Positions 1-46,994 of a DNA stretch of 64,000 nucleotides are shown piece by piece. Under the pieces are notes generated by a model. The model did not search any database and had not been told where the DNA came from. It saw only the letters and a list, made by a program, of their open reading frames with translations. The position numbers and the translations under genes are program-made. The stretch's first letter is position 1; every line of letters starts with the position of its first letter. Source of the stretch: Marsupella aquatica (Eukaryota > Plantae > Marchantiophyta); assembly GCA_973895155.1 (NCBI GenBank), contig OZ316895.1, forward strand, positions 22,828,558 through 22,892,557, given 5' to 3'.

Positions 1-1111
1 CTAGTTTGGAGTTATTTCGCAATATCTCCAACACAGTCCGATACGTTTCCCACAAGAACTTGAACCAAGGCGTCACGAGCTCACGGTCAGATCGCTCCTT
101 CCCTTTCTCTCCGCTGACATAGCTGAGCATCAAATCCTCCGGCCTCTTCTCGGCTTCTAGATCTTCTATGTCCAAAGTTACCTCTAGCGCCTGAGCCTGA
201 GCTTGCTCTGCTCTCTCGCTGGAGAGCTTCAGAAAATACTTGATGACCTCCTCCAGAGATCCGACATTCACTTGCTGGCAGACAATACGGTACTGAATGA
301 GCCCGTCCTTGGCAAACCTGCCTTTCTTCATATCCACGCACAGCTCTACATACTTGAACATGATCCTTTCCAAAGTCTTCTGCCATGTTCTGTATCTCTT
401 GCTGGTGATCAAATCGTGCAGCGCTTGCAGTGCAGCCTGCTTCTGCCCGACGTTCATCAACTCTGTACCCACGTAGATTTCCCACAATCATCGCATCAGT
501 TACACCTTCCATCTCTGGATTCATATCGACATCCCGTATCTCGATCACCGGCCCCACGAACAAGTCAAGACCATTCTCGAGTAGACCTTCACACTGAAGA
601 AATCCTAGACAGGACAAATTTCCAGTAACGAGACACTCTCATAACCTAGGAAACTGCCCCCATCTATAACAACCCAAAATATGACCAGATCACCAACCAA
701 AAAGAAAAACCTTCAGCTAAACCTTCAGAGCGGGAATTTCCCAATCATGCATGCACTCACAAACGTTCGAAAACTGCCTACATCTGATGACAGAAAATCA
801 CTAAAACATGGCGACGAAACCATCGAAACATCACCAACACAACGAACCTAACGGATCACGACACCGAACCAGTCATGCAGTAAACTATAATGCATCGACA
901 CACTTCAGCGACAGAACCAAAGAAAGCGACGCTCTACAAACTGAAAGGGCCGAGAACACCAAACTCGCACCAAAACCTAATCGGAACAGCAGAGAAGAAG
1001 AAGAACAATGAAAAGAACACGGTTCTCACAACGCCAATCGACAGAATCACAAAATCTGCACTCACCTTCGGCACGCTTGAGCGCATTCTCGGGCTTCGCA
1101 AAGGTCGCCAT
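1..1111 (-). CDS. eIF3a: Eukaryotic translation initiation factor 3 subunit A, 5' part (continues beyond the window start)
   Basis: Exon 1 at 1111-1066 gives [15 protein letters not shown] with a GTGAG donor. Exon 2 runs from 462 (CAG acceptor) to the window edge and gives [67 protein letters not shown]...[29 protein letters not shown]. This matches the highly conserved plant eIF3a N-terminus. The ORF track misses it because of the intron. Confidence 0.96.
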
Positions 1112-2780: not shown

Positions 2781-5312
2781 ATGTAGCATTGAACGCCAAA
2801 GTAGTTGAAAGCCCATTTTACACAAACTCTCTATGCCTTATGGAGATTTTTCAGTTAACTTCTCAAAGAAGGGCAATTCATGATCAAAGTTTGTTGTTCA
2901 TTGGGTACTAGGTAGAGTGAAGCCATATGCCATCATTTCCATGGTAACATAATCTCATTTATATGTGGGCTTCTTGTGAGTAGGGATGGAGTCTAGCTAC
3001 TATGGGGAACCCTTATGTGTATATACATGTGTATTGGGCTAGTTTGAACATTGTAGGCATCGATAAGCACTTCCGCCTTGGAACCCAAATGAGTAGAGGG
3101 TGTTGGTTTGAGGGCCTCTCAATAGACCCCCGTTTGTGAACCTCCTATGTGATTCACTCGAGAGCTTTACCAAACTTTTCAATTTTCTGCCTAGTTTCTT
3201 TTTAGTTGGGTTTTAGTTTATTCTACTTGGAGGGGTTTTTGCCCAAAAAGCCCATGAGGGGTGTGTCTCCTCTGCTGGCACCTATGTTCTATTGCCACTC
3301 TGATACACGTTTGCAATCAAATGTTTTTGGTCATGGGCCTACATTAGTATTGTTGTACCAATCGATCAGATGCCATTAAAGCCAGTCAGCAATTTCGACA
3401 AAAAGTGACGATCCATCCATCCATCCAATCCAAGCTACTATAAACAGAAAACTTAATCTTGCATGTCCATATGAGATTGGGCGAGACTCAGTGTCGCAAC
3501 CCCTCGTCACGAGGCCGTCTGAATGAATTGAGGGGAGGAGTCGTATGGCAGCGCAAGGATTCGAACCCGCGACCTCGAAAGCTCTGTGCTACAAGGAAAT
3601 AGCAGAACCCGTCCAGACACTTGGTAGGGTACAGAAAATCCTCCACGTCAGAAGCAACCCAATCAGCCGGGGTTCGAAACTGGTAGACGACCGCGGGGCC
3701 AATGAGGAGACTCTGAAACTTGTCGTAGGGTTTTAGGTCGAGATAGATCTACTGTAGAGGGAAGGTGGAATAGGAACAGTCTGTTTCGGAGGCTTGCCGT
3801 TCGTCGACGCAAACCGGACCGTCTCGGATTCGTTCCGTCTGAGAGCTGTGTTAGACACGTTTGTTGCCGCCGCAGACGGTTCTAATCGTGTTTTCGTTGT
3901 ACTTCCTGCGATTTCCTTCAGAACACGACTGATAGACGAATCGAGAAAGGGCCCAAGATGACTAGTGTGCAGTTGTCAGCTCAAGAGGAGGAACGTGAAA
4001 TCCACGGAGAGGGATATGAAATTGGTGTCACTGTGGTGTAAGTAGCTCTTGATGGATTATTTTGGTGTAGTGTAGTGCGATCGGAAGGAAGGATGGAAGA
4101 GTGGATGAGGGAGAGTAGAGGAGCAAAGCACTGAGATTAGTGTTGTTTGCTGAGGTTTTTGGAGTTGGAGGAGGTCTGTTCTGGCTTCTGGTCTGCGCGG
4201 CTTATCAAATCAAGAGGATTCATCAAAGGAAGTGAGGTAATGATCCAGACCTCTGGACCCGGCAGCCAGAGAAGAGTATGCTGTTCCAGGAAATTGTATG
4301 ATTGTACTCATTTTGGGGAGCCACGATGTGATTATCTGACAGAAAGCACCAGATATAGGCTCTGGGAAGTATATGGGGGCAGATCCAGTGCGGAGATTAT
4401 ACTTTGTGCATCCAGGTTACAGGCCTTCATCTCAATTGGCTAAGTTTTCTGAGCGAAAATTGTGATGTTTGTTTTCTGAGTTCTTGGAATCGTAAATGTT
4501 GCCTTGGATGACTTCCGGACCTCTTGAATCCTTCATTTTGAACCAATATGGTACGTTTTGTCCTTGGACCTATATTTCTCCGGCCGATCACATGTATTCT
4601 TAATCAGAGTATTTATCTTTTCGGGGCTACTGGCACTGATTTTGCACATAAGAGATCATAGGCTTACAGTGACACAGATGCTTAGTGACACAGATGCTTA
4701 CCAATCAGTTTGATTTCTTTTTGGAGTTTTTTTCGGGGGTTTTGGACATGAGTGGAGACGAAGCTTTTAGTGTCTTAAGGATGTGGAAACAGTCTTGCTT
4801 ACTGTTGCGAAGTGAAGTTTCTGGGTTCTCTCGTCGGACTGGGACATACTATTGACAACTGGGAGCTCCTTTGTTCGTAAACGATATGATGAAAAGTAGG
4901 TGACTTTTAGATCTGGACGAATGCAGACAGATTACCAAATTTTTACTCACGATTATTGACATTCATGGCCGTTGAGGGGAAAAAATGAACGAAGGCTAAA
5001 AATATGTCTTGGAGTTGTAGTTTTGGTGAGTTGACATTATCAGGATCTACTCAACTAAATGGCCGTTTCTATACTTTGGTTGATTCTGATGCAGTTTGCG
5101 GAGATAGTGATCTCCTGAATGACAGTAATTGTAGCAGAGTTTAATGGCACCATTTGCAGGTCCCTATAGAACTGATAATCACTCTGGAGTTGGACTTTCT
5201 TTTCTGAAGTTTTGCTTTTTGCCTTCTTCAGAGCCGAAGACTGGAAGTGACAATTAGGGCCAGTAGGTGACAATGGGCGCGGTGGAGGGGGAAATCCAAA
5301 GAATGGTGCAGG

Positions 5313-8300
5313 ATGACGTCCGAATTGACAATTAGGGCAAGCAGGGAGGTTCTGATGGGTTTGGAGGACCAAGGGGGAGTAGAGCGGCTGCAGCAGAAAT
5401 TTCAGTTTTCGCAATGGAGAGCGAACATGGCAGCAACGAAAGAGAGGCTGAGGGAGAGGTTTCGGGTGGCATCAGTGCCACAGCGTTTTCTGCGACAGTC
5501 CCAGAGGCTTCAGCCAGGAGGAGGGGTCGGTTTGCGGGGGGCCACCGCCACCGGTCTAGTGGTCGCTCGTGTGTTTCAGGGGAACATTGTCTTGGCTCGC
5601 ATGGCCCGGAGCATGGCTAGAAACGAGTGGCAGAAGCGGATGGGCAAATTTGGCGAGTTCTTGCCCACGTTTCGGACCTTTGCGGCTTCAGTGACCGTCG
5701 GATCTGCTGCAGCGTTTTCAGAGCCTGCTCAAGCTGAGGCGCTAGAATTGCCATCTGCCTCATATCATCTTGCAAATTCGGAGGTGTCAATTACCCTAAA
5801 GCGACAGAGGTCGGGGCAATCAGGTTAGTGAATGATATTATGTTCGGATGAATGAATAATTTTTATGGTGAAGCCTCTGGAGTTAGCACCCTTGGGGAAG
5901 TTCGTTAGTAGCCAATGATTATCATTGCAAATGGGGAGGGACAGAAGTTTCATTCTCTCTGCACCTACCAACAGAGGAGTCACTTAGCTAGAGAGTCAGG
6001 CCTCCGGGTTTTCTGGAGCTATTTACGAGCTCTTCAAGTCGGTGAATCACCACACTGGAAGCTTTGCAGAACTGATTACTATTGCATTTATGAGTGAGAG
6101 AGAGACTACATGACTGTTAGCGGACTCTGATTGCCACTTTCTTAATGATGTATTTCAGCAATGATATTGTCGGGTGATCAGCCTTCTACCGAGACAGAAG
6201 AAATTGGACTCTTCCGAGACGATTCTGCATTTTTGAAAATGATGCAGGCGGTCGCGATTCCTCTCATAGGAAACGCTTGTCATATTTTCATGCACGGCCT
6301 TAATTCTACAGAGGTGAATTTCTTCTCCATGCCTACCAGGTGGCATCTGTGTTACTGCCCTTTCAAAGTTCATCCAACGTTTTTTCTGAACTCCCGGTTC
6401 CCGATAGTCCATAAGATGATTATCCCTCTCTACATTTTCAATTGAGGACACAATTGAAATCGTATATCTTCCACTTCAATGCTCCTAGATTCTTCATAAC
6501 TCTTCTCGGAACTCAATCCATCTCAACTGGCATGATTATTGCTGTAGTTTTTGAAGACTGAGGTTCATCAATGATAACTTATCCCAGGCACAACATAGCA
6601 CTGCAAGTTTTGGTTTGATCCATTATTATGTGTAGGTTTATGGCGCCGAGAAAATGCAAGAAGCGGTATTTAATCGACCTCCCGGCCAGCCCCTGATTAC
6701 CGTGAGTCCTGCAATACCTTTAATTTGAGAAGTGTAGTTGACAACCACGGTCATTGGCTTATTTGCTGCTTTGGTGCTGACTGTCTTGGGATTGAAACCT
6801 TAGTGGGACTATATTGGTGGAATTTACTTGCAGGTCAGTAACCATACAGCAGCTGTGGATGATCCATTTGTGATATCTTCAGTGCTACCGCCATATAAGC
6901 TACTGAACGCAAGTAACTTGAGATGGACGCTATGTGCCACGGAGAAATGCTTCTCCAGTCCTGCCATTTCCGCGTTCTTCCGCAGTGTGAAAGTGCTTCC
7001 ACTCACTCAGGGACACGGGGTTTTCCAAGAGGTAGAGGACAGTACTTTTTGCATTTCAGTGGGCTGGGAAATCAAGTTTCTTGTTTTACCTGCACACACG
7101 ACTTCCCAGATCTACCTGAATTTTATTGACAAATAAATTCCACGGGTGAGCTCCATCGAACAGCGTCATTCGAGGAAGATCGCTCGTATCACCTCCTGCA
7201 CCCTGAAGTGTAATCTGATATTTTTGGATAATTGACGCGTATTTGCTTCTTCAGGGCATGGAAGTGGCGCTCACGAAATTGAATCGTGGTGAATGGGTGC
7301 ACATTTTTCCGGAGGGTAGTCGTTCTCGCGATGGAAGTCTTCAGCTTTTCAAAAGGGGAGTGGGCAGGTAGATTCCCCGAACAACCTTTCTAGCATGGAT
7401 CTCTTCGATCTTTATGGTATCTTTGACTAGTTGATCTCTCAGAGGCTCATGGGTAGTTGGAAGAAGTCCCAACACACTTATGAGGCTGGATAATTGGAAA
7501 CCAGTGCTCAAGGTGACAGTCTGGTCGTTCTAAAGTTGTGAATTTTGATATTGGTAGAGCTACAAAGAGTTCCTGTGTAAACTTCATTGCCGCGCTTTTA
7601 CAAGTGACAGAGGAGTCTCGTAGATATTGTAATATTGTCCCTTTACTGCAATTGGAATGTGTATTTCAATCACGGCATTTGGCAATCTGTCATGTAGGCT
7701 TGTTCTTGATGCGGACAATCTACCTCTTGTGGTACCATTCATCCACAAAGGCATGAATGACGTGATGCCTATCGGACAAAAAATGTTTTCGGCTGGAAAA
7801 AAGGTAAAAGATGAAGGACATTACTTTGTAGTTAAGAAATATGTCAATCGCATATCAATCAATGTCGATGCCAGTGGTTGTGCTTTCTATACATTCTGTA
7901 CAATTGTTCTCGCTTGTGCTGCTATATGGCATGATTATGTCACGTTCCTTATTGTCAGTACACGATTATGCTTAATTAGGTTCGGATGTTTGGTGCAGGT
8001 CACTGTTCTCGTAGGTGATCCTATCTATGTTGATGACCTTGTCAAGAAACACTTGGAAGAAGGGTTATCGAAGGCTGTTCTATATGATGCCATTGCTTTG
8101 CGAGTTGAAGCCACAATGTGGAGGATGAAGAAGGAGCTCGATGATCTTATTGCGCAAAGTAACCAACTGGCTAGCGAGAAAGCCTGTATGAGGGTGGAGA
8201 TGGCCGAGAAGGTACAGGGAATCTGGCAGTATGCAGATTGGGAGGCACAGGGCTTTCTTGTTGATGACGTTAGCACTAGAGCTAAATCGGTGATTGCTTC

Positions 8301-8607
8301 AAATCATGTGAGTGAAGACGATTGTAGGTTGACTCGTGAGAGTTCAATCAGTGCTCAAGATTTGAGTGCTGGTAGACTGGACAGTCCGCCATATCCCGGT
8401 GATGGTGGTGAATTGCGTTTGACAGATATTTACAGTGGGGCATTGAATAGAATTCAGTCCGGGGTAGACCCGTCCATGTTCATGGGATTTGCAGCCAGGG
8501 GTCTGGTGGCAAGTCGGGCTAAGCTGGATGATGGGCTGGAAAGTTTGAGTCGGAGATACTGGAGACAGATGTCTGCCCTTGAAAGCACTGCTTGGCACAC
8601 CTGCTAG
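5313..8607 (+). CDS. TAZ: Tafazzin-family phospholipid/glycerol acyltransferase (cardiolipin remodelling type)
   Basis: Exons are 5313 (or a later ATG)-5823, 6159-6313, 6636-6701, 6834-7031, 7255-7367, 7698-7803 and 7999-8607, all GT-AG and in phase. Motifs include AVAIPLIGNACHIFMHGLN, the acyltransferase HxxxxD motif VSNHTAAVDDP, LRWTLCA, WVHIFPEGSRSRDG and VVPFIHKGM. The exact start codon is uncertain. Confidence 0.93.
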
Positions 8608-14570: not shown

Positions 14571-17570
14571 GATATCTCACACCCTGATAGGATCAAGTCC
14601 TTTTCTTACATACGACGATGCATTATTGATATGTGTTATTTGTAAAACATCATCTAGTGTCACACTATGTGGTTCAATGGTAACAGAAACGTAAAACAAG
14701 AATTAGCTTTTTAAAAACTTGTTTCTCCCTGTGGACAGGGGCTGAATGACAACCTTGGGGCAATACCATAGTTTGTGTCCACTGCTTTTGAATTTCAGTT
14801 GATGTCCACCTCAATCTGCCTGACCAGCTTACATGAGGCACTGCTGAGTAAATCTCCCTTAAAAATATTAGGGTGTTGTTTGCGCCATCTAAAGACACTC
14901 CTTTTTTATATTTGCATATCTTTCATCCTTTATAAGTCAAAATCTCAATTTTTCTACTTTGCACTTGACTTGATTCTCCCCTACTGTTTTTTGATCAATC
15001 TCCAATCTGTGTCATATGTCATGTACTAAAGAAACTTTTTCTGAAGATCTGTCTTTTTCCCTACTTATGAAGGACTGGCTGTTTATGACCGGCTTGCAAA
15101 CAGTTCAGTATCCCATTTTTGCTTTGTGTTGCCGCATAGGAATCCACTTGAATTAAGGGCAAGGTCTTGGGTCTGTCTCAACTCCCTCTTCGAGAGCTAA
15201 CGCCTAATTTCTGCCAGGTGTGTTGTTTTTCCAGGAGCCATGGATGAATGGACTCACTTGCATTTATGGCCCGTGTTTATGAAAATATATACAATATAAA
15301 CAATGGATGGATATGATAGGTGTAGGTTTATGATTGTTGATTATTTGATGACAAGTGCATGTATAGGTGTTGACCTCTTTTTGTCCAGAGTTTTATAGCT
15401 ATAAGGCTGTTACTAATTTGTCTAGTGCCCAGTGCTGTCTAACTTGGCTTTTAGACATAGTATCTTTAAAACAGGTTTGCTACATCTGAATAATTCAGAA
15501 AGTCTGTTTCACCAGGTTCTGCTAATAGTCTCCAATGCTTTTCATGATCTATATATGAGTGCGGCGGTTGTCATAGTTTGACAAAGTATTTTTTTTATTT
15601 GCTTAAAGCCTGTTTGATTTTTTACTCATGTTTGGTTATATGTAAAGTCTATTTACTGACCTCAATATTCACAGACCTATGTTTCCTTGACGAAGTGCAT
15701 GATATGTCTTGGTAAAACTTGTTATAATCTCTACTCACGAATGACTTGGTGTATGTGTGTATCTATGTGTTGATATCTCCCTGCCCAGACCTGTATAGCC
15801 ATGACATTGTTTATAATTTGTCAATGTACAGTATTGACATGGCCTTTAATGGGTGTCATATCTTTGACATTATCTGACTCTCTCTCTCAAGAATAACTTG
15901 GGAAGTAAAAGTAGCAATACATATATATATTTATTTATATCTGATGTGATATCATACCCTGATAGCTAGGATCAGGTCCCTTTCTTACCTACGGCGATGC
16001 ATTATGAATACAACATGTTATTTGTAAAACATCATCTAGTGTCACATTACATCTCCATAGTAAATAACATACCCATACCATATCATATCATACCATCCCC
16101 AGACTGGATAAAATGTATAGAACACATCATTCCATCCATAGAGTAGTTAAAATACATAGAACATCTCACATGTTCTATTCTTTTACTGATTGCAAATCAA
16201 CACCCGATTGTAGGAATGAATCTTGAAGATGCATGCAAATCATTCAAATATTGTAATGTAACTTAATACAAATCTCAAAATAAATCTCTGAATACCTATC
16301 CATCACCCACATACAATCATTCATTGGAACAAAGACTGTTCATACCCATGAGATTCAACTATCGAAAGAGTGGAGTACCTGGGTTAGCTTAGTGCACCGG
16401 ATAGATAAATGAAACTCTTGTGCTTTGTTTCAAGGCCACAATATTGATTGTATTCTTTCCTCAGGGCTTACTAGACAGAGATAACCCACACCACTGGTGC
16501 CTTCATTCAGCCCTATCACTAGGTTGAAAATGTTTTAAAAATATTGCTTCAAGTACATTGTTTCTGTAGCTTTGTCCGAACGGCCATGGGAAGACATGGT
16601 CCAAGGAAAGGCTAGTACTTATATCCCTAAACATTTGCATGAAGGTATGTGCATCAAGCCAGTCTAGTAACTAGTGTTTTATTGTGGAAAGCAAAAACAA
16701 TATTCGCAAAAGTCAGCATTCTAGAGCACCTTAGAGTATTTGCACCCATTGTTCTACTCCATCAATAGTCCCACGAGCCTTGTCTGTAGTTACAGTGATA
16801 GTACAATACTGCCTTTGCCCATAGTCCCACGAGCCTTGTCTATAGTTATAGTGATAGTACAATACCGCCTTTGCCCAGTCTTCTCACAATCCGTGTTTTG
16901 TTGGCACACTGTTGGTGCAGTCCTTCCTTAGTTTGCTTGTCTTCTCAATACAATGACAGAGTTAGGCCCCCAAGTGTTTCTTGGATTCTTCAGGGCAATC
17001 GTCACTAAGTATGAGCATTATCTCTGTGATCGAGTGCAGAATATAGATTTGTGCCATCTTGCCATCTTTGGCAAGATGGCACAAAGAGCCCGCTGATTAC
17101 ACTACCCACAGGCAAATGACCCACTCAACTAAGGGGAGGCAACCAAGGAGCCAAAAAGCCCCGTCGACCATGGCAAAAGTCCACCACAAAAATAATGCAT
17201 GGGCATGTCCTAGAGGCAGGGCAATGCCTACAATCGATAGAAAATGTGGATTCTCGGGCGACTATCAATAGAGAGAGTGTTCTGGACAAACACTAGGTGT
17301 CAACCTTAGCTATAGCTCATGGTAGGATCGTGTGGGTCTAGGAGTTGTTATCCGTTGACCTATTTACTTATGAATGTTGAGCTTGACACAAGACAATGAT
17401 CTTTGGTTTTGAGATTGAGATGGGTTATTACGGGTTGGTTTCTCTGTATGTGGAGACTGTAGAGGCCCTTGAATGAGACTGGTGTTGAGAAGCAAGTGCA
17501 AGTTTGTATCACACAAGTTTCAATCTAAAACCTTAGCCTAAAGAGTTTCAATCTAGAACCTTAGCCTAAA
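9370..17570. mobile_element. Gene-free, repeat-rich block of nested degenerate TE fragments
   Basis: Internal duplications are visible: 9520-9570 vs 9589-9638, 12885-13000 vs 15765-15890, 14500-14665 vs 15890-16045, and 12581-12730 vs 17353-17500. There is a GC-rich 11400-12880 segment and there are microsatellites (GA, CT/CA, AT). No credible long ORF is present and no family was assigned. Confidence 0.55.
14530..14562. repeat. (AT)n microsatellite
   Basis: Run of AT dinucleotides seen directly. Confidence 0.9.
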
Positions 17571-17933
17571 CTGTCATTGGAACCGAGACTGTAATTGTAC
17601 TATGTACATATGGATTGGAAGAAGGGTGACTAGGATGACTTTTGGGGCAGAACATCATGGAAATAAAAGGGGCATCCAAAAATGTTTAGACACTGGTAAC
17701 CCTTGTTCTTTACCAAATTTGGTAACCCTCGCTCTTTACCAAATTTACGATAGAAAGACAGGGGGATGTCATGATTTGAGAGCATTCGTCAATTCTAATT
17801 TTGGAAGGAGAGGAAAAGTTGGAGTCGTTTTCGAAGAAAAGTGAGCAGACGGCACTTTTCGAGTGGTCAGCTCTAGAGCAAGACTCCCAACTTACGTGTA
17901 AGGAGAGGGCTCGAGGACGGGCGGGATGCAACT

Positions 17934-19304
17934 ATGCAAGACGCGAACGATTCCTACACGCAGTGGAAGTCGCTGGTTCCAATCCTCTACGACTGGCTCG
18001 CGAATCACAACCTGATTTGGCCATCTCTCTCGTGCAGGTGGGGGCCCCAAGAGGCGCACGGCACTTACAAGACTCGACAGCGAATTTACGTGTCCGAGCA
18101 GACAGACGGGTCCTGCCCAAACACGTTGGTTGTTTTGAATTGCGATGTGATCAAACCTCGGGTGGCAGCGGCTGAGCACATATCTCAGTTCAATGAGGAA
18201 GCTCGATCTCCGTTTGTGAAGAAGCATAAGACCATTATTCACCCGGGTGAGGTGAACAGAATCAGAGAGCTGCCGCAGAATAGCAGCATTGTGGCCACTC
18301 ACACGGACAGCCCGGAGGTGTATGTGTGGAATCTGGATTCACAGCCCAATCGTGCTCCTTTACTAGGAGCCGCTCTTTCAAGACCTGATCTCGTCTTGGC
18401 TGGTCATACGGAGAATGCAGAGTACGCCCTTGCTCTGAGCCCTAATTCACCGCTTGTTTTGTCAGGAGGCCGAGATAAGAAAGTGGTTCTTTGGGGAGTA
18501 GAAGACCATGTCACAAGTATGGTGGAGTCCTCTTCTTCAAGACCGGCTGGGTCAGCTGGCGGGGGCAGACAGAGTTGGAATAATGCCGATAAGTTAGCAG
18601 TGTCTCTAACAACTGTTGGCCCACGAGGGGTATTCGAAGGTCATACTGCCACTGTTGAAGATGTGCAATTTCGTGCTTCCAGCTCGCAGGAGTTTTGCAG
18701 TGTAGGTGATGATTCTTCGTTGATCTTGTGGGATGCTCGGAAAGGGACTACACCTGCGATCAAGGTAGAAAAGGCTCATGATGCTGATTTGCATTGTGTG
18801 GACTGGAACACTCATAACGAAAATCTTCTCCTGACTGGTTCAGCCGATGCATCGGTCAGGTTGTTTGATCATCGAAAGCTCTCAAGCAACGGCCACGGCA
18901 TTCCGGTCGAGACTTTTCGTGGACACACCGCACCTGTTCTCTGTGCTCAGTGGTGTCCAGACCGAGCTTCAGTGTTTGGAAGCTCAGCAGATGATGGCGT
19001 TCTGAACGTCTGGGATTTCGAGAAGCTGGGGAAGCAGGAGGAAGTGAAGGAGATTCGTACTCCTCCGGGGCTTTTCTTCCGGCATACAGGGCATAGGGAT
19101 AAAGTAGTAGACTTCCAGTGGAATATTTGTGACCCGTGGACAGTTGTGAGTGTGTCCGATGATTGTGAAAGTGCTAGGGGAGGAGGAACATTACAGATTT
19201 GGAGAATGAACGATTTTATCCACAGGCCAGAAGGTGAGGTCCTTGCAGAGCTTGATAGGCATCGAACAAAGATTGTCAATGGGTCTGTAGCCTCTGTTGC
19301 CTAG
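17934..19304 (+). CDS. MSI4: MSI4/FVE-type WD40 histone-binding protein (RBBP4/CAF-1C family), intronless, 456 aa
   Basis: A single uninterrupted ORF carries YTQWKSLVPILYDWLANHNLIWPSLSCRWGP, EEARSPFVKKHKTIIHPGEVNRIRELPQN, ATHTDSPEV, FCSVGDDSSLILWDAR, HDADLHCVDWN, PPGLFFRHTGHRDKVVDFQWN and GGGTLQIWRM. These motifs are diagnostic of the MSI4/FVE subclade. Confidence 0.97.
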   Translation: MQDANDSYTQWKSLVPILYDWLANHNLIWPSLSCRWGPQEAHGTYKTRQRIYVSEQTDGSCPNTLVVLNCDVIKPRVAAAEHISQFNEEARSPFVKKHKTIIHPGEVNRIRELPQNSSIVATHTDSPEVYVWNLDSQPNRAPLLGAALSRPDLVLAGHTENAEYALALSPNSPLVLSGGRDKKVVLWGVEDHVTSMVESSSSRPAGSAGGGRQSWNNADKLAVSLTTVGPRGVFEGHTATVEDVQFRASSSQEFCSVGDDSSLILWDARKGTTPAIKVEKAHDADLHCVDWNTHNENLLLTGSADASVRLFDHRKLSSNGHGIPVETFRGHTAPVLCAQWCPDRASVFGSSADDGVLNVWDFEKLGKQEEVKEIRTPPGLFFRHTGHRDKVVDFQWNICDPWTVVSVSDDCESARGGGTLQIWRMNDFIHRPEGEVLAELDRHRTKIVNGSVASVA

Positions 19305-19345
19305 CGTCTTCTTATCGTCTTCGTTCCTTCTATCAATTTGGAACG

Positions 19346-22300
19346 ATGGCCCACCCGTGCTCAATTCCGCATGCTCTGAACGGTAAAGATGCCGCAATTG
19401 CTGTCAAGCGCAGCATAAGTTTGAGGCACCCAATTGATGCCGCTTCTCTGCCATTGATGAGGTTCTCGCTCAAGTTCAAGCCCTTTCCCTGGAAGTTCAA
19501 TGGAACAACTGGGCTGATGTGTCCAATTGCCAGAAGGCTACGAATGGTAGAAACTGAGTGGAAACGGAATGAAGTCAGATGCAGTGCTGGGCGTTTTTCG
19601 AGCGATGGAGTTGGTGATCTGTCTGCCAACCTGCAGCAGCAAGCTACTACCCTGCAACAATTGCGCAGGGCACGGGTTATTGCCTGTTTGAGAGCTTCCA
19701 GGTAGCTATGATTCCTGGAACCAAGTGACCCAATTGATAGTTTGAGGTTCTTCACTTTCCCAAGAAAGGTGGTGTCCATGGGAAAAGATGTTTGATCCAA
19801 TTTCATTGCAGTTGTTTATCTTTCGGTTGGATTCCATGGTTCGTTAATGCTTGGTTTCAGTGGTTTAAGGGGTTGATCATAGGCCATTGCCATTTGTTTA
19901 GCTGGCAGCTTAAATCCACGCCAGGGTTCAGGGTTTACGGTTTACCTTCCACATCACAGCAGATGTATTTTTCTTTGGTTATAATTTTACATGTCAGGGT
20001 TTTGGTCGTTAAGGGTTTTGATTCCTATTAAGTCTTGGTTAGGATTCAGTGGTTGGACAATTCTTCTTGGAACTTATCGTATGTCTTTACCAGAGGTTGA
20101 GGTGTCTGGATATGTTTAGGGTATCTCGAGAGAACGGCTTTTTCTCAATCTTTGGCTGAAAGTCAGTACCGAATAGTTTTTTGTTCCCAGGAGTTGTGGA
20201 TCTCTTTGGCTTTTGGTCGGGACGTGGGGTTTCTCTTAAGATTATTGGTTTTGACGATCAGGATCAAGGGCTATGGTGGACATCTAGAGAATGGGATCCT
20301 GTCGTAATGATCTTCGAGAATGTGCAAACGTGTATTGCCCAAATGAGTCGAAAAAATATAATCCGGTTCAATGCAGTCTGTTAAATTTCCTAAAAATCAC
20401 AATCTTATTGCATGGAGACTTAGTGTAGATCCATTCGGTGAGGTAAGACTACAATTGCCGCTGACATTCCTGGTGGTGTCCGTGTAACGTTAGAAGTAAT
20501 AATCAGAGATTGATTGTATAAAGACTGAATTGGCAGTTCAAACCTGGCGCTGGATGCGGCTCGTGCAGCACTGGATGGTGGGCTTACTGTGGTCTGCTCT
20601 TCTGCCTTTCGTGATATCATTCTTTTGGTCTTGATATATCATTAGAGTTGGGTATCAAGCTGGCATTGTAATTGCCGTCGGCCACTGAGCCAGTCTCTGA
20701 TGATCCTCTTGTTTGCTTTCCTTGCAGCTTGAGGTCACCATGAATACTCCGCAAGCTGCAGAGGTCAGTACTTTCGATGGTGAGGACCATGAATTTTGTT
20801 TAAACCTCACAAGACGCTTTACTTGCGTTTGAGTGATTTTGGAAAAGATTGTGGCAATTTGTTGGATTAAGTCGATCATTGACTGCAACTTTACCTGTTT
20901 AGCTTGTAATGATAAGACTCAGAAAGTTTAGAAAGTAGAGGGATCCTTGCTCTGGACTAGGTTAGTATCTCGAAATGGGTTTCAACTCTGCAAGTTGAAC
21001 AAGATGGGATGAGGTCCTCTACCACACCTCACTTTGATGTGGAAAAGTCTTGAGACAATTCTTGAATATTGAGGTAACTATCGCGGAGATTGCAGGTAAT
21101 CAAGGTTCTTGTGCGAGAGTATCCATCAGTATTAATTGGGGTAAGAGAGACTTACAGACCAGCATTTGGCAGTGACGAGTTTTCACTTTAGACTTGCTAT
21201 TGTGGACCACGGAAATGCCGGAACTTTGCTTCGGGCTTGGGTCTAATCGTGTCACTTGGGACATACTTCAGGCTGGTACTGTGCTATCGACGAAAGAAGC
21301 TGATCTGGCCAAAGATGCTGGAGCCAAGTTTTTGATGAGTCCTGTTACAGTGGAGGTCTGTGCTTATATCACGTACACATGACAGAGAGTACAAGACATT
21401 TTTGCTTCTGGAGACAGTACTTGGTTATTTCATCCTTTCGACATTTGTTTTCATTGTGATCGTTGTGTCGCGGTTGTTTTGACATTTTGCTGCATCGTCG
21501 ATGATTGAAATCTTAGACTTATAGTCAGATATACTTCGTTTTGACTTCAGTCCACAAAATGTTTTCATGTCTTTGTTACAGGAGATTGTCCGTGATCACA
21601 GATGTGGACCAGTAGTACACATTCCAGGGGCTATGACACCAACTGAGGTTAGGCCATGAAGCAAGCCAAACTTAGCATGCAAGAACTTTCTCCTTCCATC
21701 AGGGACTAGAAAGGTGTGTCTATTGATGTTGTCGCTAACTATGATTTTATCGATGGGCTGCTTATCTCTAAATCACATGCTTTGTGGTTTGTCTCCTTTG
21801 CAGGTTATAAGTGCGTACAACTTAGGAGCTCCTGCTGTGAAGGTGAAATATAATTTAATGAGTATGAAAAGAATGTAGTACTTAGCTACTGTAGATCTCA
21901 ATATGCCATCAGGATCAGGATATTGGAATCAGCCACATCCACGTTGTCAACATTACTGTAGGTCGTCTCTTGTTAACTCTAGTCAATGCCTATTTTCTTA
22001 TGTATACTGCTTCAATAGACATTTTCAAGTATAGTTTTGCATTGTACACCGTCTTTCAGCAATCAACTCCCCGTCCAGAAGCCTATTTCTTACTATTTGT
22101 GCTCGCCGGGTTCCATTCTTGTTGCAAGCTTACCTCATTTGTAGATCCATTGAGGTTCAAAGCTGGCTTGTGACCGAGGTTCGTTGTGCAGCTGTACCCG
22201 ATGTCACTTCTCGGAGGAGTTCCATTCATGAGAGCTCTGAGCAAATCACTTGGTCATATTCCCATGATTCCATCGAACGGCATTTGCTTAGGTGAATCTT

Positions 22301-22564
22301 ATTCCCAGTCGCTTACTCTTCTTCTAATTTTCACAGCAAATACTCAGGCATACATTTTAAGCTTCGTCTAACCATCTGTTAACCATTAATGTAACAGATA
22401 TGGTGGAGTCATACATTATTGCAGGTGCAATCGCAGTGATACTTTCTGAATCAATTTTTGAAAAGTCAGCATTAGAAAGAAATGATATGGATAGAGTAAG
22501 GAAACTTGCAAGTGCAGCTGTTTCGGGGACTACTTCTTGTCAATCCAAGTTGATGACTTCTTAA
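19346..22564 (+). CDS. EDA: KDPG/KHG aldolase (Eda, class I aldolase) with predicted plastid transit peptide
   Basis: Exons are 19346-19701, 20537-20591, 20728-20763, 21096-21140, 21272-21355, 21582-21647, 21804-21842, 22192-22291 and 22398-22564, all GT-AG with consistent phase. The spliced protein reads ...VIACLRASSSNLALDAARAALDGGLTVLEVTMNTPQAAEVIKVLVREYPSVLIGAGTVLSTKEADLAKDAGAKFLMSPV...HIPGAMTPTEVISAYNLGAPAVKLYPMSLLGGVPF...IPMIPSNGI...AGAIAVILSESIF. It has the GAGTV, GAxFxxSP, PGxxTPTE and Schiff-base VKLYP motifs. The ~100-aa N-terminal extension is rich in R/S/A. Confidence 0.93.
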
Positions 22565-23460
22565 AACAATAATCATCTTTGCTCTGACGATGGTCCTCCA
22601 ATTGTGAACGATGAATTCCGAACACGATCTCTTACGGGCAGCACCTCTGCACCGCCATTGGGTTCAGTCGGTCCACTGTTCTTTGTCATGCACAACTGGC
22701 AGGACTGAGAAGTCGCGTTTCTTTGCCAAGCTCTAGTGGTTGATATCTTGTGGTGCACTCGATAGTTAACAAGCTCAACCTCTTAACTTTATTAAAAAAT
22801 CGGAGTATGATGAAAAGTATCTTATAACTTCATTAAAAAATAGGAGTATGATAAAATGTATTTTACAATTTCATTAAAAGTCCTTCAGATTGTCATACAG
22901 GTGTTCAAGGGTCACATTGAACATTTGTTGACCCTCTTCATATCCTACCCCTTTGGAGTAGCATCCACGGAAACACCCTTATCATTCCCTTCCCATAGCA
23001 AATCAATAACCACCCAACTGCCCGAAACTTTGGATTGGTTCACATGAGTGCAAATCAATAACCACCCAAGTGCCATAAACTTTGGATTGGTTCACATGAG
23101 TCTAAGCTGGTCCCCAATCTAATTAAAATGCGAATATAGACAAGTGAGTTTACTTGGGATTGGTTCACACGAGTCTAAGCTGGTCCCCAATCTAATTAAA
23201 ATGCATTGATTCTGGACAAGCAATGACTCCCTTATGCAATGGCACTTGACAGTATTGATTATAGACAAGCATTGACTTGCATATGCAATGGCACAAGTCA
23301 GATCTTGGAACTGAACAAGACATATCAGAACATGAAACCCATTGAACACCCGAAGATTGTAATTGCAATTGGGGAAAGCATCTGCCACAATTGAACTGTA
23401 AAGGCTAATGCCACTAGCACATGACAGATCTTAAGGGGCACTGAACAAGACAATTAGAGC

Positions 23461-27019: not shown

Positions 27020-27715
27020 CAAAATTGGAAAACCCCATGATCATAGGCACCTACCAGGATAAATCGAACACCTTCCTCAATAGGTACATCTAAGCCCGCC
27101 CAGGACCAGAGCCCATCATTTTCATCACTAGACAGAATGGAGAAGGGATGGCAAGCCTGGCTGTCTGAACAGTGGTCGCCCATAGATGGTTGCTCCATAG
27201 CCCGTGAGCAATATCCTCCACCTGCTGATCTGACAAATTATGCCAACATAAGGCGTGCTCACCACTAACCTGGTTGGCGGTGGTTATTCCAGGTACAGAA
27301 TGGGCTGATTGTATCAGCAAATTACTAATTTTTTTGAATGAATCCTCTATATCTGCTCCCTGTACCACAGGAGCACTCTCCACACCAAGCGCAAGATGAA
27401 GTCCTCAATTACTGAGGACTTGCACCACCAGCGCAGGATTGTCCTCAGGCAGCCCCTGCACAATCTGATTGCACACCATGACTGTCATCGGCGTGAGAAT
27501 TCCCTTGAGAGAATCAGGACATGTGATATTGTGACTCAACTCGTTCTCTTCAACCTCATTCCTCTCACTCTGGCGAGGCATCTCCCCCAAAAGAGAAGCC
27601 CTCATGACTTTGCGGAGACATGTGATATTGTGACTCAACTCGTTCTCTTCAACCTCATTCCTCTCACTCTGGCGAGGCATCTCCCCCAAAAGAGAAGCCC
27701 TCATGACTTTGCGGA
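27020..27715 (-). pseudogene. Disrupted ORF of unknown family, present in both duplication copies (also ~24260-24795)
   Basis: The near-continuous reading MRASLLGEMPRQ...GLPEDNPALVVQVLSN*GLHLALGVESAPVVQGADIEDSFKK...NLSDQQVEDIAHGL carries a TGA where copy A has CGA (Arg). Copy A is frameshifted elsewhere. An exact 99-bp (33-codon) tandem duplication lies at ~27518-27715. No family was recognised. Confidence 0.35.
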
Positions 27716-30466
27716 CAGAGATTCAGCGGGAAAAGGCCGTTCAATACTCGTGATGTGAGAACTCAGTTTTGAGAGTGGGGAGAGGAGAGGAGTGGCGAAG
27801 AAGTTATGGAAGTTCACACTATTGTAGGTGGGCAAGGCTCATGCTTGTTCACCACACGGTACCCAGCTTGGCTCATGCTTACTTTGCCGGACGGCTGATT
27901 TTTATTAACCACATGGTACCCAGCTGTGCTGACGCATATTAACGACATGGCACCTGGGATCACACATGTTAACCAGGGCAGAGGAGTTATGGCAGCAGTA
28001 GTTCGCAAACCTCGGAAATTCTACCATTCTAGTAGAAACCTTAGAAACAAAAAACTCACCTCGATTGGAAGCTAACTCGCGGCAACAACGACCAGAACTA
28101 ACACATCAACACGGTAACCACATCAGCTCAGCCAGCACGATGTTCTCCTCCGTTTCTCTGCTCCGGCACTTCTCCTGCGGCTCTCAGAAGCTGCGGCACA
28201 TCCACTCCTCGGTTTCTGGTTTTGCCAATTGCATAATTTATGCGAACAGGACCAAATTTGGAAAGCACCATTGGAATTTGGGAATGAGTTGAAGTCCCGC
28301 ATAAGTTGAAGTCCTCTACACTTATTCCCAGAGAAGAAGCAACCAAAGGGTTCGCGGGAGATTGAGATCATTATTTGAAATTTCAGTACCATATATATGG
28401 GATCCTTTGTTCGGAAGTTGGCCCTGACCCGGGTGCCCCTTCCTCTACAGTTGGATTCTGGCCCAATAAAGTCTTGTCAAGTAAAGCCCGCCCCAGACAA
28501 TCTTGTCGAGGGAAGTCGACCCATGCGCAGAAAAGTTTTGTCCAGTAATTAAGATCTTATCTAGCAAACTCCAGCGCAGTAAGTTGGTCTCCCTTCCTGC
28601 CAACGTGCCTGCCTGTGAAGAATGATGGACCCAGCTGGAGTCTCAATGCCTGCCGACGTGCCTGCCTGTGAAGAACAATGGACCCAGCTGGATTCCCAGT
28701 TCAACGGAGGTACCATTCATTGCAGCCGGGCCAGAGGGAGTCAGCTGCCATCATCAGGCGAAGTACGCAGGGAAGGTGGCGATTTCGATTTTTGGCATGC
28801 GGTTGACAATTTGCGGTACTTCTCTTCCAAGGATCTTTGTCGATCTCAAAACAATTACCAGTACACACGGGCAACCCAAAAACAGGGCCCCAAAGCAAAC
28901 AGTAGGAGGAGAGTCCAATAGCGTTTATTGACGCATCGGCTGTAAGGTCCCGGTGTTACTGACAGACTGATAAGCGAGGAGAGGAGGTGGAGAAACGAAC
29001 AGCGACGAAGTGGGGTACGGGTAATCTGAGACGCTCGGCAATTCCAGGGTCAAGGGTTCTCTTGCCCAGTCCTCCTGCACCGCAGATCACACCTCTGCTC
29101 CTCCAGTGAGCTGCTGTGGTGGTTCATATGGTCAAAGAGTCCCTCTTAGGAAATTGGTGGGAGGTGATTTGTTGCTGCTGTAGCGACGATGTTAGTTGTC
29201 ATCTGTCCTGGTTCTTACCTCCTCCAACTTTTCCTGCTGCTCTGATTTTTCTTTTCCCAAGTTGCGCAACCACTGTAGCTTGCAGGCAGGAAAACCCCTG
29301 GATTACATTTATTGCTGCTCTTGCTTGGGTTGACACTGTTTCTAGTCATTACTCCATTGGTTCCTCCTGCACATTCGTGAGGTCATTTTCGAAGGTAACT
29401 GTATAATCGATGAGCCTACTATAGTGCGAACAATTCATTCAGGTCAGCATATTGCTAGATGGAAAGCTTCACTGAAGTCCTCTTGTCTTCTTTCCCAGCC
29501 CTTGTTTGGTCCTGTCCCGGAGCTTGTCGACGTGGATAATGCGGCCAAGTGCGCGAGTTACATTGTCGTCTGGCATGCGCAATCGACCTTGCGAAAATCA
29601 GAGATTATTTCCGGGTAAGTTCGGTTTTCGTTCGGAGAGAATGAATGGAAGGGTTAACTAGTAAAGCCTCTCGCGATAGCACCCGTACTGGGGTTTTGCC
29701 TCTGATGCCTACGGTTCAATTGAAAGGTGCAACCTCGCGGGTTGAGAGAGGGAGAGATTTTTCTTTTGCGTCTGAAAAGCCGGCAGACTGGTCTACATCA
29801 GTAGATACTTTCATATTTGGGTGATTTCGATTTTGGGCGCTTGCAGCTCACTCGCGTTCTCCCGTCCTCTGCACAGTAGTGACGTATTCCTGCTTGTCTT
29901 GCCGCTTTGACAGTTCACAGAGCGTCCATTTGATGAAGGTCCGCGACTGACATTTTCTTTCCCTGCGTCGTGCGTTGTTTTGTGATGGTGTGTAGCGTCA
30001 GAGAGAATAAAGGGATTACTTGAAACACTAGAAGGTATAGAGACAGAGAGGATAATGATTCAGGTGACTAGCTGAATCCAGGGTAAACCTAGATCACCAG
30101 GTTTGTGTTAGGGGCGTCTGATTAGATGCGGCGAGAGAGTGGATAAGATTAGCTCCGTCAGTGATTGAGAAGGAGGTTACAACCTGCTAATGCATTTCTG
30201 TATCACTGTTTGCTGTATCAGATGTGCTGGTGACTTGTGCTGGCAATCGATTGGGATCTCCAAAGGTAGAACTTCCTTCTTTCAATTGTACCGATTGAAA
30301 ACATCAAAGGTCTCCCTGGTCTCCCACTATTGCAAGGAACATAAGTCGGACGGCAGGACCGGCTTCCCGACTCTGAAGGTGGTGATGTTCAGTCTGATCT
30401 GTTGAGTTTACAGATTCTGGCGGATTGATCCTTGAACGAATTGGGCAGAGCAGGAGTGCGACAGCA

Positions 30467-32376
30467 ATGGGGCCCGAGGGATTCTTTAGTGTTTCAGAGA
30501 TCGTAGGAACGGTGGGAAACGCATGGCAGGAGTGGTTGTCGGGGATGCTGGGGCCCGTCTTAGCTCTGTCAGTGGTGTTTGCTGCCATGATAGTTTCCTA
30601 CACGCAAAACCTTGGCATTGAGATGGAAATGATCATTTCCATTGCAAGGGCCTTTCTCCAACTTTCGGTGATCGGATTCGTTCTGGAGTTTATCTTCAGT
30701 CAGTCGAATGTCGCCTGGATTTTTCTGGCGTACCTATTCATGGTGAGAACTGCAGCACTTCCGTTCGATTGAATTAAAACTTCTCGTTTGGCAAATGGAC
30801 GTTTGGCAAATGGACTGCAGCTGTGAGATTTCTGCAGTTTTTGAGCTTTGCTTTCTCGCATTCCTTCGTAGGAAAGTGTAATTGTATAACGAAAGATTGA
30901 CACCGGACAATGCATTGAATTGGAGTGGTATGGAAGTTCTTATTATAATCTTATGTCGAGGCATTTAGGCAGTCAAGGACCTGTTCAGGTTCTCGGTGGA
31001 TTTTAGACACTATTGATCCTCAAAATCTACCTTCAAAGTGTTGTATCTTTCTCGAAAATCCTGAAGATTTATCGTAAAATTATGTCTCAAAAGTTTCGAT
31101 ATACATCTTGATTCAAGGTGGAATGTCCCGGATAGGCAACAAGGATTGAATACGGCTATAATCTTCGAGGACAAGGAAGCCAAGTTATTACATAGAAAGC
31201 AGGCCCGATTGTTCCGGCAGATCCATAGGCTTATGCCTTTCTCTTCATCCATCGCAAGTTGTGAACGGTACCTTAGCTTCCTAACAGGCAGCTGGTCATC
31301 TGAAATCTCGTTTTGTACCAAAAGGGCTTAGTGTCCCTAGCGGCAGAGCCCTTCTAGAAATGTCAATCTGCTACCTAAGTTGATGTGCTTAAGTTGAGGC
31401 AAGGGTCAAGTAGTCAAGAAGTGCGCTGTGTCAGACTTGACCTTAGAATAGAATTACTCAAACGTTCATTTGCTTCAATGTATGAAGGAAACACGATTTT
31501 TTGCAACAATTTCGAAAAAGTGAGTACTCCGAATTTTATTAGGTTTCCACGTCAGTTTCAAACAGATTCGTCTCGTAATGCGTTCCGCTTGCTGTTTGCA
31601 GGTTACAGTTGCAGGTTACACTGCAGGAAGGCGTGCGAAGAATGTGCCTCAGGGAAAATATGTTGCGGGAGTGTCCATTCTGATTGGAACTTTTTTAACA
31701 ATGGTGTTGCTTGTTGTGCTGAAAGTGTTCCCCTTCACCCCCATGTACATTATTCCAGTGGCCGGGATGATGGTTGGCAATGCGATGACTGTGACAGGTG
31801 TGACATTAAAACGCCTCAGAGAAGATTTGCGGCAACAGCAAGGCTTGGTGAGCTTTTTGTGCATTGTGAACTGCCTAGTGGTGCAAAGTTTCTGCACACT
31901 TGTCCTAGTAAATGCTAGCTTCCTTTGACATCGGCTTTTTCAATGAACTGATGCGTCCGATCACCGAATATTGCAGCAAAGGTGAGCACTGGTTTTTTTT
32001 GTTAGTCTCAAATCGTCGTTAGGTGCCAATGTTAATGTTTTATATGATTTCTGTATTGCAGATTGAGACAGCATTAGCATTGGGGGCAACCCCTAGACAG
32101 GCCATACACAAGCAGGTGAGGAGGTCACTTATAGTAGGTTTGTCACCAGTGCTAGATAACGCAAAGACAGTTGGACTCATCACGTTGCCAGGAGCTATGA
32201 CGGGGCTAATCATGGGTGGAGCATCCCCCATGGAGGCCATTCAGTTACAGATAGTGGTGATGAATATGTTGTTGGGAGCATCCACGTTCAGTGGTGTTGT
32301 GGCGTGTAATCTGAGCTGGCCGTTTTTCTTCACCAAAACTTATCAACTCAAATTGAATGAGTTGAAAGCTGAGTAG
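30467..32376 (+). CDS. STAR2: STAR2/ALS3-type bacterial-like ABC transporter membrane subunit (UPF0014)
   Basis: Exons are 30467-30742, 31602-31847 and 32062-32376, all GT-AG. Motifs include ARAFLQLSVIGFVLEFIF, VAGYTAGRRAK, FPFTPMYIIPVAGMMVGNAMTVTGVT, ETALALGATPRQA, SPVLDNAKTVGLITLPGAMTGLIMGGASPMEAIQLQIVV. Confidence 0.96.
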
Positions 32377-36630: not shown

Positions 36631-37038
36631 TCATCCTCCAGACGACGCACACATGCATTGCGCTTGGCTGTAGCAGAAGGTGGTCACCCGATCCGCAGAA
36701 CAATCATTGTATGCATTGCACGTAAGCAAACATTCCTTCCCATTGCAAGAGCACAATTTTGCATCCCCGTAATAACAGTCGTCTGTGGTGATTTTGGTCG
36801 AGCCGCACGTCTGCCATCTCCCTCTCGTGCATTGCGGGGTGCAAGGGAAGGTCGGGACACCGGCTGTTGTCGCGTTGCTTGCTGGTAATGTTACACTACC
36901 GTCAACTTCTGCAGTTCGAATTGCCACTAGAGGAGTCGGAGACAGGGTCAGAGAAAGTAGGACGATGAGTGTGAGGAGAGCCGTTTTATGGTTGCTGTAG
37001 CTCTTCAAGAAATGCGTGTTTGATAAGCTGGACACCAT
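36631..37038 (-). CDS. Small secreted cysteine-rich protein (135 aa, 12 Cys), family not recognised
   Basis: Intronless ORF from the ATG at 37038. It has a hydrophobic signal-like stretch TALLTLIVLLSLTLSPTPLVA, a short Thr/Ala/Pro spacer containing an NAT sequon, and then 12 cysteines in ~65 residues ending QCMCASSGG. Confidence 0.75.
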   Translation of the reverse strand: MVSSLSNTHFLKSYSNHKTALLTLIVLLSLTLSPTPLVAIRTAEVDGSVTLPASNATTAGVPTFPCTPQCTRGRWQTCGSTKITTDDCYYGDAKLCSCNGKECLLTCNAYNDCSADRVTTFCYSQAQCMCASSGG

Positions 37039-37132
37039 TTTTGTAAGTTGGAACTTGGAAGCCTCTTTTCTGGACACTGGATCGAAGGAAACTATAAGAA
37101 TTTGACGTTCATATGTCGATCCTGCAGCAAGA

Positions 37133-37182
37133 CTAGTACCAGATAAGTATAGGCGTTCACTCTGAGACGGAGTGAACGCCTA
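37133..37182 (-). mobile_element. Helitron-type 3' terminus (hairpin + CTAG)
   Basis: A perfect 13-bp stem TAGGCGTTCACTC / GAGTGAACGCCTA (37150-37182) is followed on the minus strand by 13 nt, then CTAG (37136-37133), then T. This is the canonical Helitron 3' end geometry. The 5' TC end was not located. Confidence 0.6.
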
Positions 37183-46400: not shown

Positions 46401-46994
46401 TACTCTAATAGATTCCTGATTGCATGCATAACTGAGGTCAGCAAAAATGATGCGGGGATTGACATCGACGCAGACTGGACGAAGGTCGAGTGCGAATGCA
46501 AAACTGGGAAGTACGTAACGACTACCGATAACAGTCATCCCGTTTCCCATACACCATATAGGATCAAAATATCTCCAAGCAAGCAGGGAATGCGTCGTGG
46601 ACATCTGGGAATTTGGCCGCACAGGAAGCTGAGAAATCCTTTGAGTAATAGCAATTTTTCTTTCAAAATGGTTCCAAGCTCACGGAAGCATGATGAGTAC
46701 CGTGACGAAGCATTCGTGGAAGAACATCCTTAGAAGTTGAGCAGGTGCCTTAACGTCCGCATTGAAGCGATTGTTGAGAATGCTGGTGACGATGCTCTCG
46801 GCATTTGGGCAAGAATTGCTGTAATACCCAATTCGAAACGACGAATTTCCTCCGTAAGGTGCGAACGTTGCCCTGCACACAGGGACTCGTTGTAGTATCA
46901 TGGCTACCACTACTAGAACTCGGAGCGCCAGAGCTACCTGCACCATCGCCCCAGTCTCGGAATTCCTCGCATGTTGCAGTCTTGAGTTTGCCAT
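43497..46994 (-). CDS. Class III secretory plant heme peroxidase
   Basis: Exons are 46994 (or 46946)-46701, 45847-45659, 45217-45049 and 43936-43497, at the classical class III intron positions. The protein has a signal peptide, YYSNSCPNAESIV, distal LLRMFFHECFVTGCDGS, VSCAD, GRLD, proximal GAHSVG, DNSYY and IRRNC. All eight conserved Cys are present. Confidence 0.95.

Follow-up and report, generated by a model that had tools for sequence, protein, structure and literature searches.

An unusually tight, apparently recent MSI4-Eda gene pair in the liverwort Marsupella aquatica, with possibly overlapping transcription units

Bicistronic arrangements with a long first open reading frame (ORF) are known from LINE-1 and from Drosophila stoned. 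In plants, the CDC26-TTM3 locus is an ancient pair, with CDC26 as a short ORF resembling an upstream open reading frame (uORF). The bicistronic loci of green algae show small first ORFs and a depletion of AUG codons (PMC11892635), and in Arabidopsis the RNAs that read through from one gene into the next are targets of nonsense-mediated decay (NMD), the second ORF being seldom translated in seven of the eight cases tested (PMC9768141). Here we describe a locus in a window of 64,000 nucleotides from Marsupella aquatica (contig OZ316895.1, positions 22,828,558 to 22,892,557; coordinates below are those of the window), where an ORF for the histone chaperone MSI4/FVE is followed closely, on the same strand, by a gene for a KDPG aldolase (Eda). 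MSI4 and Eda form a genuine gene pair, unusually tight and apparently of recent origin. We propose, with a probability of about 0.45, that a likely lineage-specific rearrangement has left the two genes with overlapping transcription units, Eda probably being expressed from its own shorter mRNA that starts internally.

Two intact, independent ORFs with a short spacer, a feature of algal-type nuclear bicistrons, are present at this locus (Table 1). The coordinates given in the preliminary description of this DNA hold: the MSI4 reading frame opens at ATG 17934 and closes with the TAG at 19302-19304, and after 41 nt the Eda ATG (19346) follows in a different frame and, as had been noted, in the strong context ACGATGG. 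Fusion of the two proteins by readthrough was considered and is ruled out, because the frames differ. Nine Eda exons join at eight GT-AG introns into 315 codons with a single terminal stop at 22564, neither the frame nor any of the 16 splice-site dinucleotides being disrupted. The spacer had been described as pyrimidine-rich and devoid of a poly(A) signal or TATA, and so it is: there is no AATAAA and no TATA word in 19305-19345, and the first 30 nt contain 25 pyrimidines, the top 30-mer of 17600-19701; of the 30-mers of the window, 0.2% reach this value. In pyrimidine content the spacer is nearer to the leader of the neighbouring UPF0014 gene (25-26/30) than to two 3' untranslated regions (UTRs; 20-21/30). 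The confinement of introns to the downstream gene had also been emphasised. The count stands (eight introns in Eda, none in MSI4), but it is uninformative: MSI4 exons are also long in Sphagnum, so that an intron-poor MSI4 is not diagnostic. Sphagnum MSI4 gene calls are unbroken over residues 4-154 and 4-280, their ends being inferred introns, and another plant MSI4 locus (L042) has short exons. The asymmetry between MSI4 and Eda says nothing about transcript structure.

The junction is bridged without indel by single DNA contigs of three sequencing runs, X1, X3 and X4, from two studies (X1 may be the source of the window itself). Moreover, run X4 carries a distinct second haplotype across the junction, with six substitutions and no gap over 18757-19597. 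The join is therefore real and not an assembly error. All four runs compared consist of DNA-like contigs, and none of these contains an intron-skipping joint. Over 16500-22700, runs X3 and X4 each contain two haplotypes that lie several percent apart in introns and flanks; these pairs may reflect allopolyploidy or a mixed sample.

Synteny, which the preliminary description had put forward as a check on the pair, does not extend to the relatives compared. Annotated MSI4 and Eda lie on different contigs in all five liverworts compared (Calypogeia fissa, Marchantia paleacea, M. polymorpha, Riccia fluitans and R. sorocarpa) and in all four Sphagnum species (S. magellanicum, S. balticum, S. compactum and S. 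jensenii). In C. fissa, for example, MSI4 is found on contigs of 7.17 and 14.81 Mb and the four annotated copies of Eda on three contigs of 24.10, 17.19 and 2.29 Mb. This comparison applies to annotated copies, so that an unannotated gene could escape it; it covers 15 of the 20 members of the Sphagnum MSI4 cluster, and S. troendelagicum was omitted because its Eda record is indistinguishable. No Eda was detected (tblastn, E<=1) at any of 46 MSI4-like loci from metagenomes, which is weak evidence since many of these are short transcripts or distant algal loci and none of the 15 compared is liverwort-like. Linkage conserved across species, another feature of algal-type nuclear bicistrons, is thus not seen here. 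The separate contigs in relatives and the metagenome loci together suggest that the join is likely a lineage-specific and apparently recent rearrangement. No description of an MSI4-Eda pair or of bryophyte nuclear dicistrons was found in a search of mostly openly accessible papers, and six neighbouring Marchantia gene numbers, which might have helped to tell which gene moved, yielded none either.

The upstream ORF matches PF12265 (71.5 bits) and PF00400 (93.4 bits), both above the Pfam cut-off, and its CAF1C_H4-bd domain, WD40 propeller and best matches, which are MSI4, place it in the MSI4/FVE subfamily. Its best relative is a C. fissa protein (88% identity), with Marchantia and Riccia next at 69-72%, which points to a leafy liverwort as the likely source. 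It thus shares the domain pair of plant MSI4/FVE, an RBBP4-like histone chaperone, with 66-74% identity to named land-plant MSI4, but it is intronless, unlike the other plant genomic loci examined (L042). The second haplotype of X4 has no non-synonymous and two synonymous changes in MSI4; the flanks, with 8 changes in 325 nt, predict about 26 non-synonymous ones. Relative-rate tests against C. fissa are non-significant in 6/6 comparisons for MSI4 (p 0.12-0.85) and in 9/9 for the core of Eda (p 0.47-1.0), and both genes look functional, with proteins that evolve at the same pace as those of C. fissa. The low number of synonymous changes in MSI4 (2 against 7.8 expected, P=0.016) might point to embedded signals, but this figure, which depends on eight flanking events and collapsed contigs, is not used further. 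The run contigs contain no second intact MSI4 copy at 80% likeness, only fragments of 34-66 nt. MSI4 may or may not be a recent retrocopy: a parent was not seen at 80% likeness, nor an A-tail past the stop, and the exons of Sphagnum MSI4 are already long. Degenerate MSI4-like fragments (cf. 18117-18175 and 18831-18963) occur elsewhere in the genome, surrounded by unrelated DNA. Just ahead of the MSI4 start, an upstream AUG with G at -3, unaltered in the X4 haplotype, opens an overlapping uORF of 29 codons that could dampen MSI4 translation. Further upstream, a tandem repeat of ~26 nt occupies 17695-17746, where X4 has extra sequence (a joint going back 49).

The single exons of Eda match PF01081 below the cut-off. 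The joined protein, however, is 77% identical over 287 columns to C. fissa P0148, which carries PF01081, and its LEVTM and AVKLYP motifs align, via the C. fissa copy P0264, with those of solved KDPG aldolases (PDB). It therefore belongs with the KDPG/KHG aldolases (PF01081), containing the motifs of the catalytic Glu and the Schiff-base Lys. The first 85 residues are rich in S, R, K and A (31) and poor in D and E (5). The N-terminal extension is likely to be a transit peptide and the enzyme is likely to be a chloroplast aldolase. Plant EDA belongs to the same family, conserves the Glu and Lys motifs and likewise has an N-terminal extension; the soybean protein fused to GFP was found in chloroplasts, and plants possess neither EDD nor an Entner-Doudoroff pathway (PMC10847513). 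Because EDD is missing from plants, Eda would likely be a promiscuous plastid aldolase acting outside that pathway. Among four longer Eda proteins found in a protein search, none is fused to a WD40 domain, although this is weak evidence; the collection searched does not contain the proteins encoded in the window.

The length of the gap between the two genes hinges on Met1 being the start of Eda. In C. fissa the two full-length Eda proteins begin at the position that corresponds to Met38 (19457), and with this start the gap would be 152 nt. When residues 1-37 are compared with the N-termini of five other bryophyte proteins, the likeness is not significant (shuffle P 0.41-0.88), and an apparent resemblance to Marchantia N-termini was rejected. 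Met38 may have been the ancestral start, with the 152-nt gap, and Met1 a later in-frame extension. A six-codon uORF at 19437-19459, whose TGA overlaps the Met38 ATG in a stop-start TGATG, may be due to chance. An antisense ORF of 157 codons (19333-19806, minus strand) lies opposite exon 1 and the intron-1 donor and is likely a shadow frame.

Since the anatomy leaves no room between the genes, the MSI4 transcript must enter Eda, and the Eda promoter can only be located within the spacer, within MSI4 or further upstream. In the scheme that we favour, the rearrangement would have removed most of the MSI4 3' UTR and of the Eda upstream region. An MSI4 mRNA starting near 17.8 kb would now be polyadenylated in intron 1 of Eda, its 3' UTR being made up of exon 1 and a part of that intron. 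The Eda mRNA would begin either within the final ~140 nt of MSI4 or in the pyrimidine-rich spacer. With no free promoter space for Eda, spanning molecules are also plausible; spliced through to the Eda 3' end, they would be dicistronic in structure, prone to NMD and poor templates for Eda. The CpG observed/expected ratio reaches its maximum (0.99) at 17800-18199, in the MSI4 leader region. Downstream, the window 19280-19345 is free of AUG, and a transcript starting there has Eda Met1 as its first AUG. Intron 1, a candidate site for the MSI4 mRNA 3' end, contains poly(A)-like words (TGTA/TATAAT at 19964-19985 and 20331-20362, AATAAT at 20498). It also contains four copies of AGGGTT at 19923-20017 against 0.6 expected (0/500 shuffles), a motif picked by eye and post hoc. 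In DNA that is not a promoter, transcription can be made to initiate by a first intron (10.1101/083261). Initiation of Eda within MSI4, which the preliminary description had listed among its own alternatives, seems to fit the sequence at least as well as a dicistron.

Several observations weigh against overlapping units of this kind. Two intron-enhancement motifs, TTNGATYTG and CGATT, are unenriched in intron 1 (P 0.87 and 1.0). AATAAA is absent between 19305 and 23000, a second CpG peak was not found at the junction, and polyadenylation within intron 1 would face competition from the donor of that intron. When a whole intergenic region was deleted right into the coding sequence of the gene upstream, expression was lost despite the presence of a stimulating intron (10.1101/083261), a result that counts here because its geometry is close to that of MSI4-Eda. 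Finally, NMD in moss is less efficient for junctions distant from the stop (PMC6009662).

The preliminary description had given prominence to a single transcript from ~17.8 kb that carries both genes. For such a dicistronic mRNA of MSI4 and spliced Eda to be functional, ribosomes would have to reinitiate over the 41-nt spacer (or enter internally) and the molecule would have to escape NMD. This reading appears doubtful. The argument already made there, that internal AUGs in MSI4 disfavour leaky scanning, is borne out. The first ORF is 456 codons long and contains 19 AUGs, three in frame and 16 out of frame, and the latter are not depleted (19.2 +/- 2.4 in synonymous shuffles, P=0.14), which makes leaky scanning implausible; the AUG depletion upstream of the second ORF that characterises algal-type nuclear bicistrons is lacking. 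In the Eda frame alone, MSI4 contains no AUG where 3.0 are expected (P=0.029, post hoc), as would suit a dicistron, and the short, unstructured and AUG-free spacer could permit reinitiation. The strong context of Eda Met1 (A at -3, G at +4) would suit it as well. The MSI4 start, with A at -3, C at +4 and a competing upstream AUG, may or may not count as weak. Neither an IRES-like (internal ribosome entry site) signal nor an unusual fold supports internal entry, as a search of Rfam at the spacer gave no family, its one chance-level match (E 0.69) lying outside the spacer, and the predicted fold of 19200-19460 is no more stable than those of shuffled sequences (z -0.20). The nearest TGGGA word, a calicivirus-type motif, is ~290 nt upstream of the MSI4 stop. 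Purifying selection on both genes, the lack of AATAAA past the MSI4 stop and an Arabidopsis experiment in which coding sequence was no promoter (10.1101/083261) are compatible with one long transcript. However, a spliced spanning mRNA would have eight junctions past the MSI4 stop, the first at 397 nt, and is thereby exposed to NMD, which splice junctions in a 3' UTR predict in moss (PMC6009662). The poor translation of second ORFs in Arabidopsis read-through RNAs (PMC9768141) and the absence of linkage in the relatives compared also speak against it. That MSI4-Eda is a recently born, obligate land-plant dicistron, with an AUG-rich first ORF of this length, reinitiation at a plastid enzyme 41 nt on and an escape from NMD despite eight junctions, is unlikely.

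Splicing-out of MSI4 is a third route, absent from the alternatives of the preliminary description. A shared promoter would serve both genes, the MSI4 ORF lying inside an optional intron of the Eda 5' UTR (e.g. 17866-19248) that is removed to give the Eda mRNA and kept to give the MSI4 mRNA. The top-ranking donor, in the leader, scores 9.7 (real donors -1.8 to 10.0, leave-one-out) and lies 68 nt ahead of the MSI4 ATG; the acceptor scores 7.4, 98 nt ahead of Eda Met1, but the 25 nt ahead of 19248 contain four further AGs. These scores come from a matrix built on only 10 introns, and within the coding sequence of MSI4 many sites reach the same level. The MSI4 stop TAG is itself a poor acceptor (-4.4), and the intron would be 51% GC against ~36-48% in real introns. 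The neighbouring UPF0014 gene, with its apparently long leader, offers a local parallel, yet we regard this arrangement as rather improbable.

It is also conceivable, although we think it quite improbable, that this Eda is barely expressed, its task falling to a more diverged copy at another place in the genome. The four C. fissa copies indicate that the gene duplicates in this group, and the test for whole-gene copies, with its threshold of 90% likeness, would miss a diverged paralogue. Indeed, X1 and X2 contain, at another place, a diverged duplicate of the Eda 3' end (~22487-22708), which adjoins sequence like the duplicated element at ~27520-27720. Five of the six second-haplotype changes in exon 1 are non-synonymous, but all five fall in the variable N-terminal extension, and the intact frame and splice sites and the lack of rate acceleration argue for a working gene. 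An assembly chimera of two unlinked genes, which their separation in all annotated relatives compared might suggest, has a negligible probability given the bridging contigs of X1, X3 and X4 and the separate X4 haplotype across the junction.

Table 1. Features of the MSI4-Eda locus (window coordinates)
Feature	Position	Strand	Remarks
Putative MSI4 leader	17780..17933	+	purine-rich
Candidate 5' splice site GTG/GTCAGC	17866..17871	+	in leader; rank 1 of 110 GT sites in 17600-19345
Upstream AUG and overlapping uORF	17926..18015	+	out of frame; 29 codons; 8 nt ahead of MSI4 start
MSI4/FVE ORF	17934..19304	+	intronless; 456 codons/aa; CAF1C_H4-bd and WD40
Candidate 3' splice site TCCTTGCAG/A	19237..19248	+	near MSI4 3' end; rank 3 of 135 AG sites; weak
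Last AUG ahead of Eda	19279..19290	+	3-codon uORF; T at -3
MSI4-Eda spacer	19305..19345	+	41 nt; pyrimidine-rich; no AG or AUG
Eda exon 1	19346..19701	+	N-terminal extension (likely transit peptide), then start of aldolase domain; Met1 19346, Met38 19457
Eda intron 1	19702..20536	+	835 nt
Eda exons 2-9	20537-20591, 20728-20763, 21096-21140, 21272-21355, 21582-21647, 21804-21842, 22192-22291, 22398-22564	+	KDPG/KHG aldolase domain; LEVTM and AVKLYP motifs

Elsewhere in the window, the neighbouring genes encode eIF3a (2-487, minus strand), a UPF0014 membrane protein (30468-32376, plus strand) and a peroxidase (43500-47174, minus strand). Two further coding regions have no Pfam match at E<=0.01: a multi-exon gene at 5271-8607 (plus strand), whose last frame has 324 codons, and an ORF for a small, secreted-looking, cysteine-rich protein at 36631-37179 (minus strand).

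With almost no intergenic DNA between two functional-looking genes, termination, initiation and NMD must be solved here in an unusual way. If the internal start of Eda is true, a recent rearrangement would have placed the promoter of one gene and the 3' UTR of the other each within its neighbour's coding sequence, and the locus would offer a clean natural example of this. If the dicistron is true, plants would have a case in which ribosomes reinitiate past a long ORF, and the 41-nt element would be useful for the co-expression of genes.

Among the known systems, CDC26-TTM3 likewise has the gene of a nuclear regulator followed, on the same strand, by that of a metabolic enzyme, but MSI4 is long and the MSI4-Eda pair apparently lineage-specific. 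The green-algal loci that use leaky scanning resemble MSI4-Eda in that their two ORFs differ in frame and are separated by a short spacer, the second one starting in a strong context (PMC11892635). However, their first ORFs are relatively small and AUG-depleted and the loci are described as conserved, whereas here the first ORF is long and rich in AUGs and the pair is not conserved. The polycistronic read-through loci of Arabidopsis likewise consist of two same-strand genes, with the stop of the first ORF followed by spliced downstream exons (PMC9768141). There, each gene is equipped with a poly(A) site and a promoter of its own; MSI4-Eda, which is known from DNA, has no intergenic room, making overlap obligatory. 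By analogy, the locus would work most like plant read-through or overlapping same-strand gene pairs.

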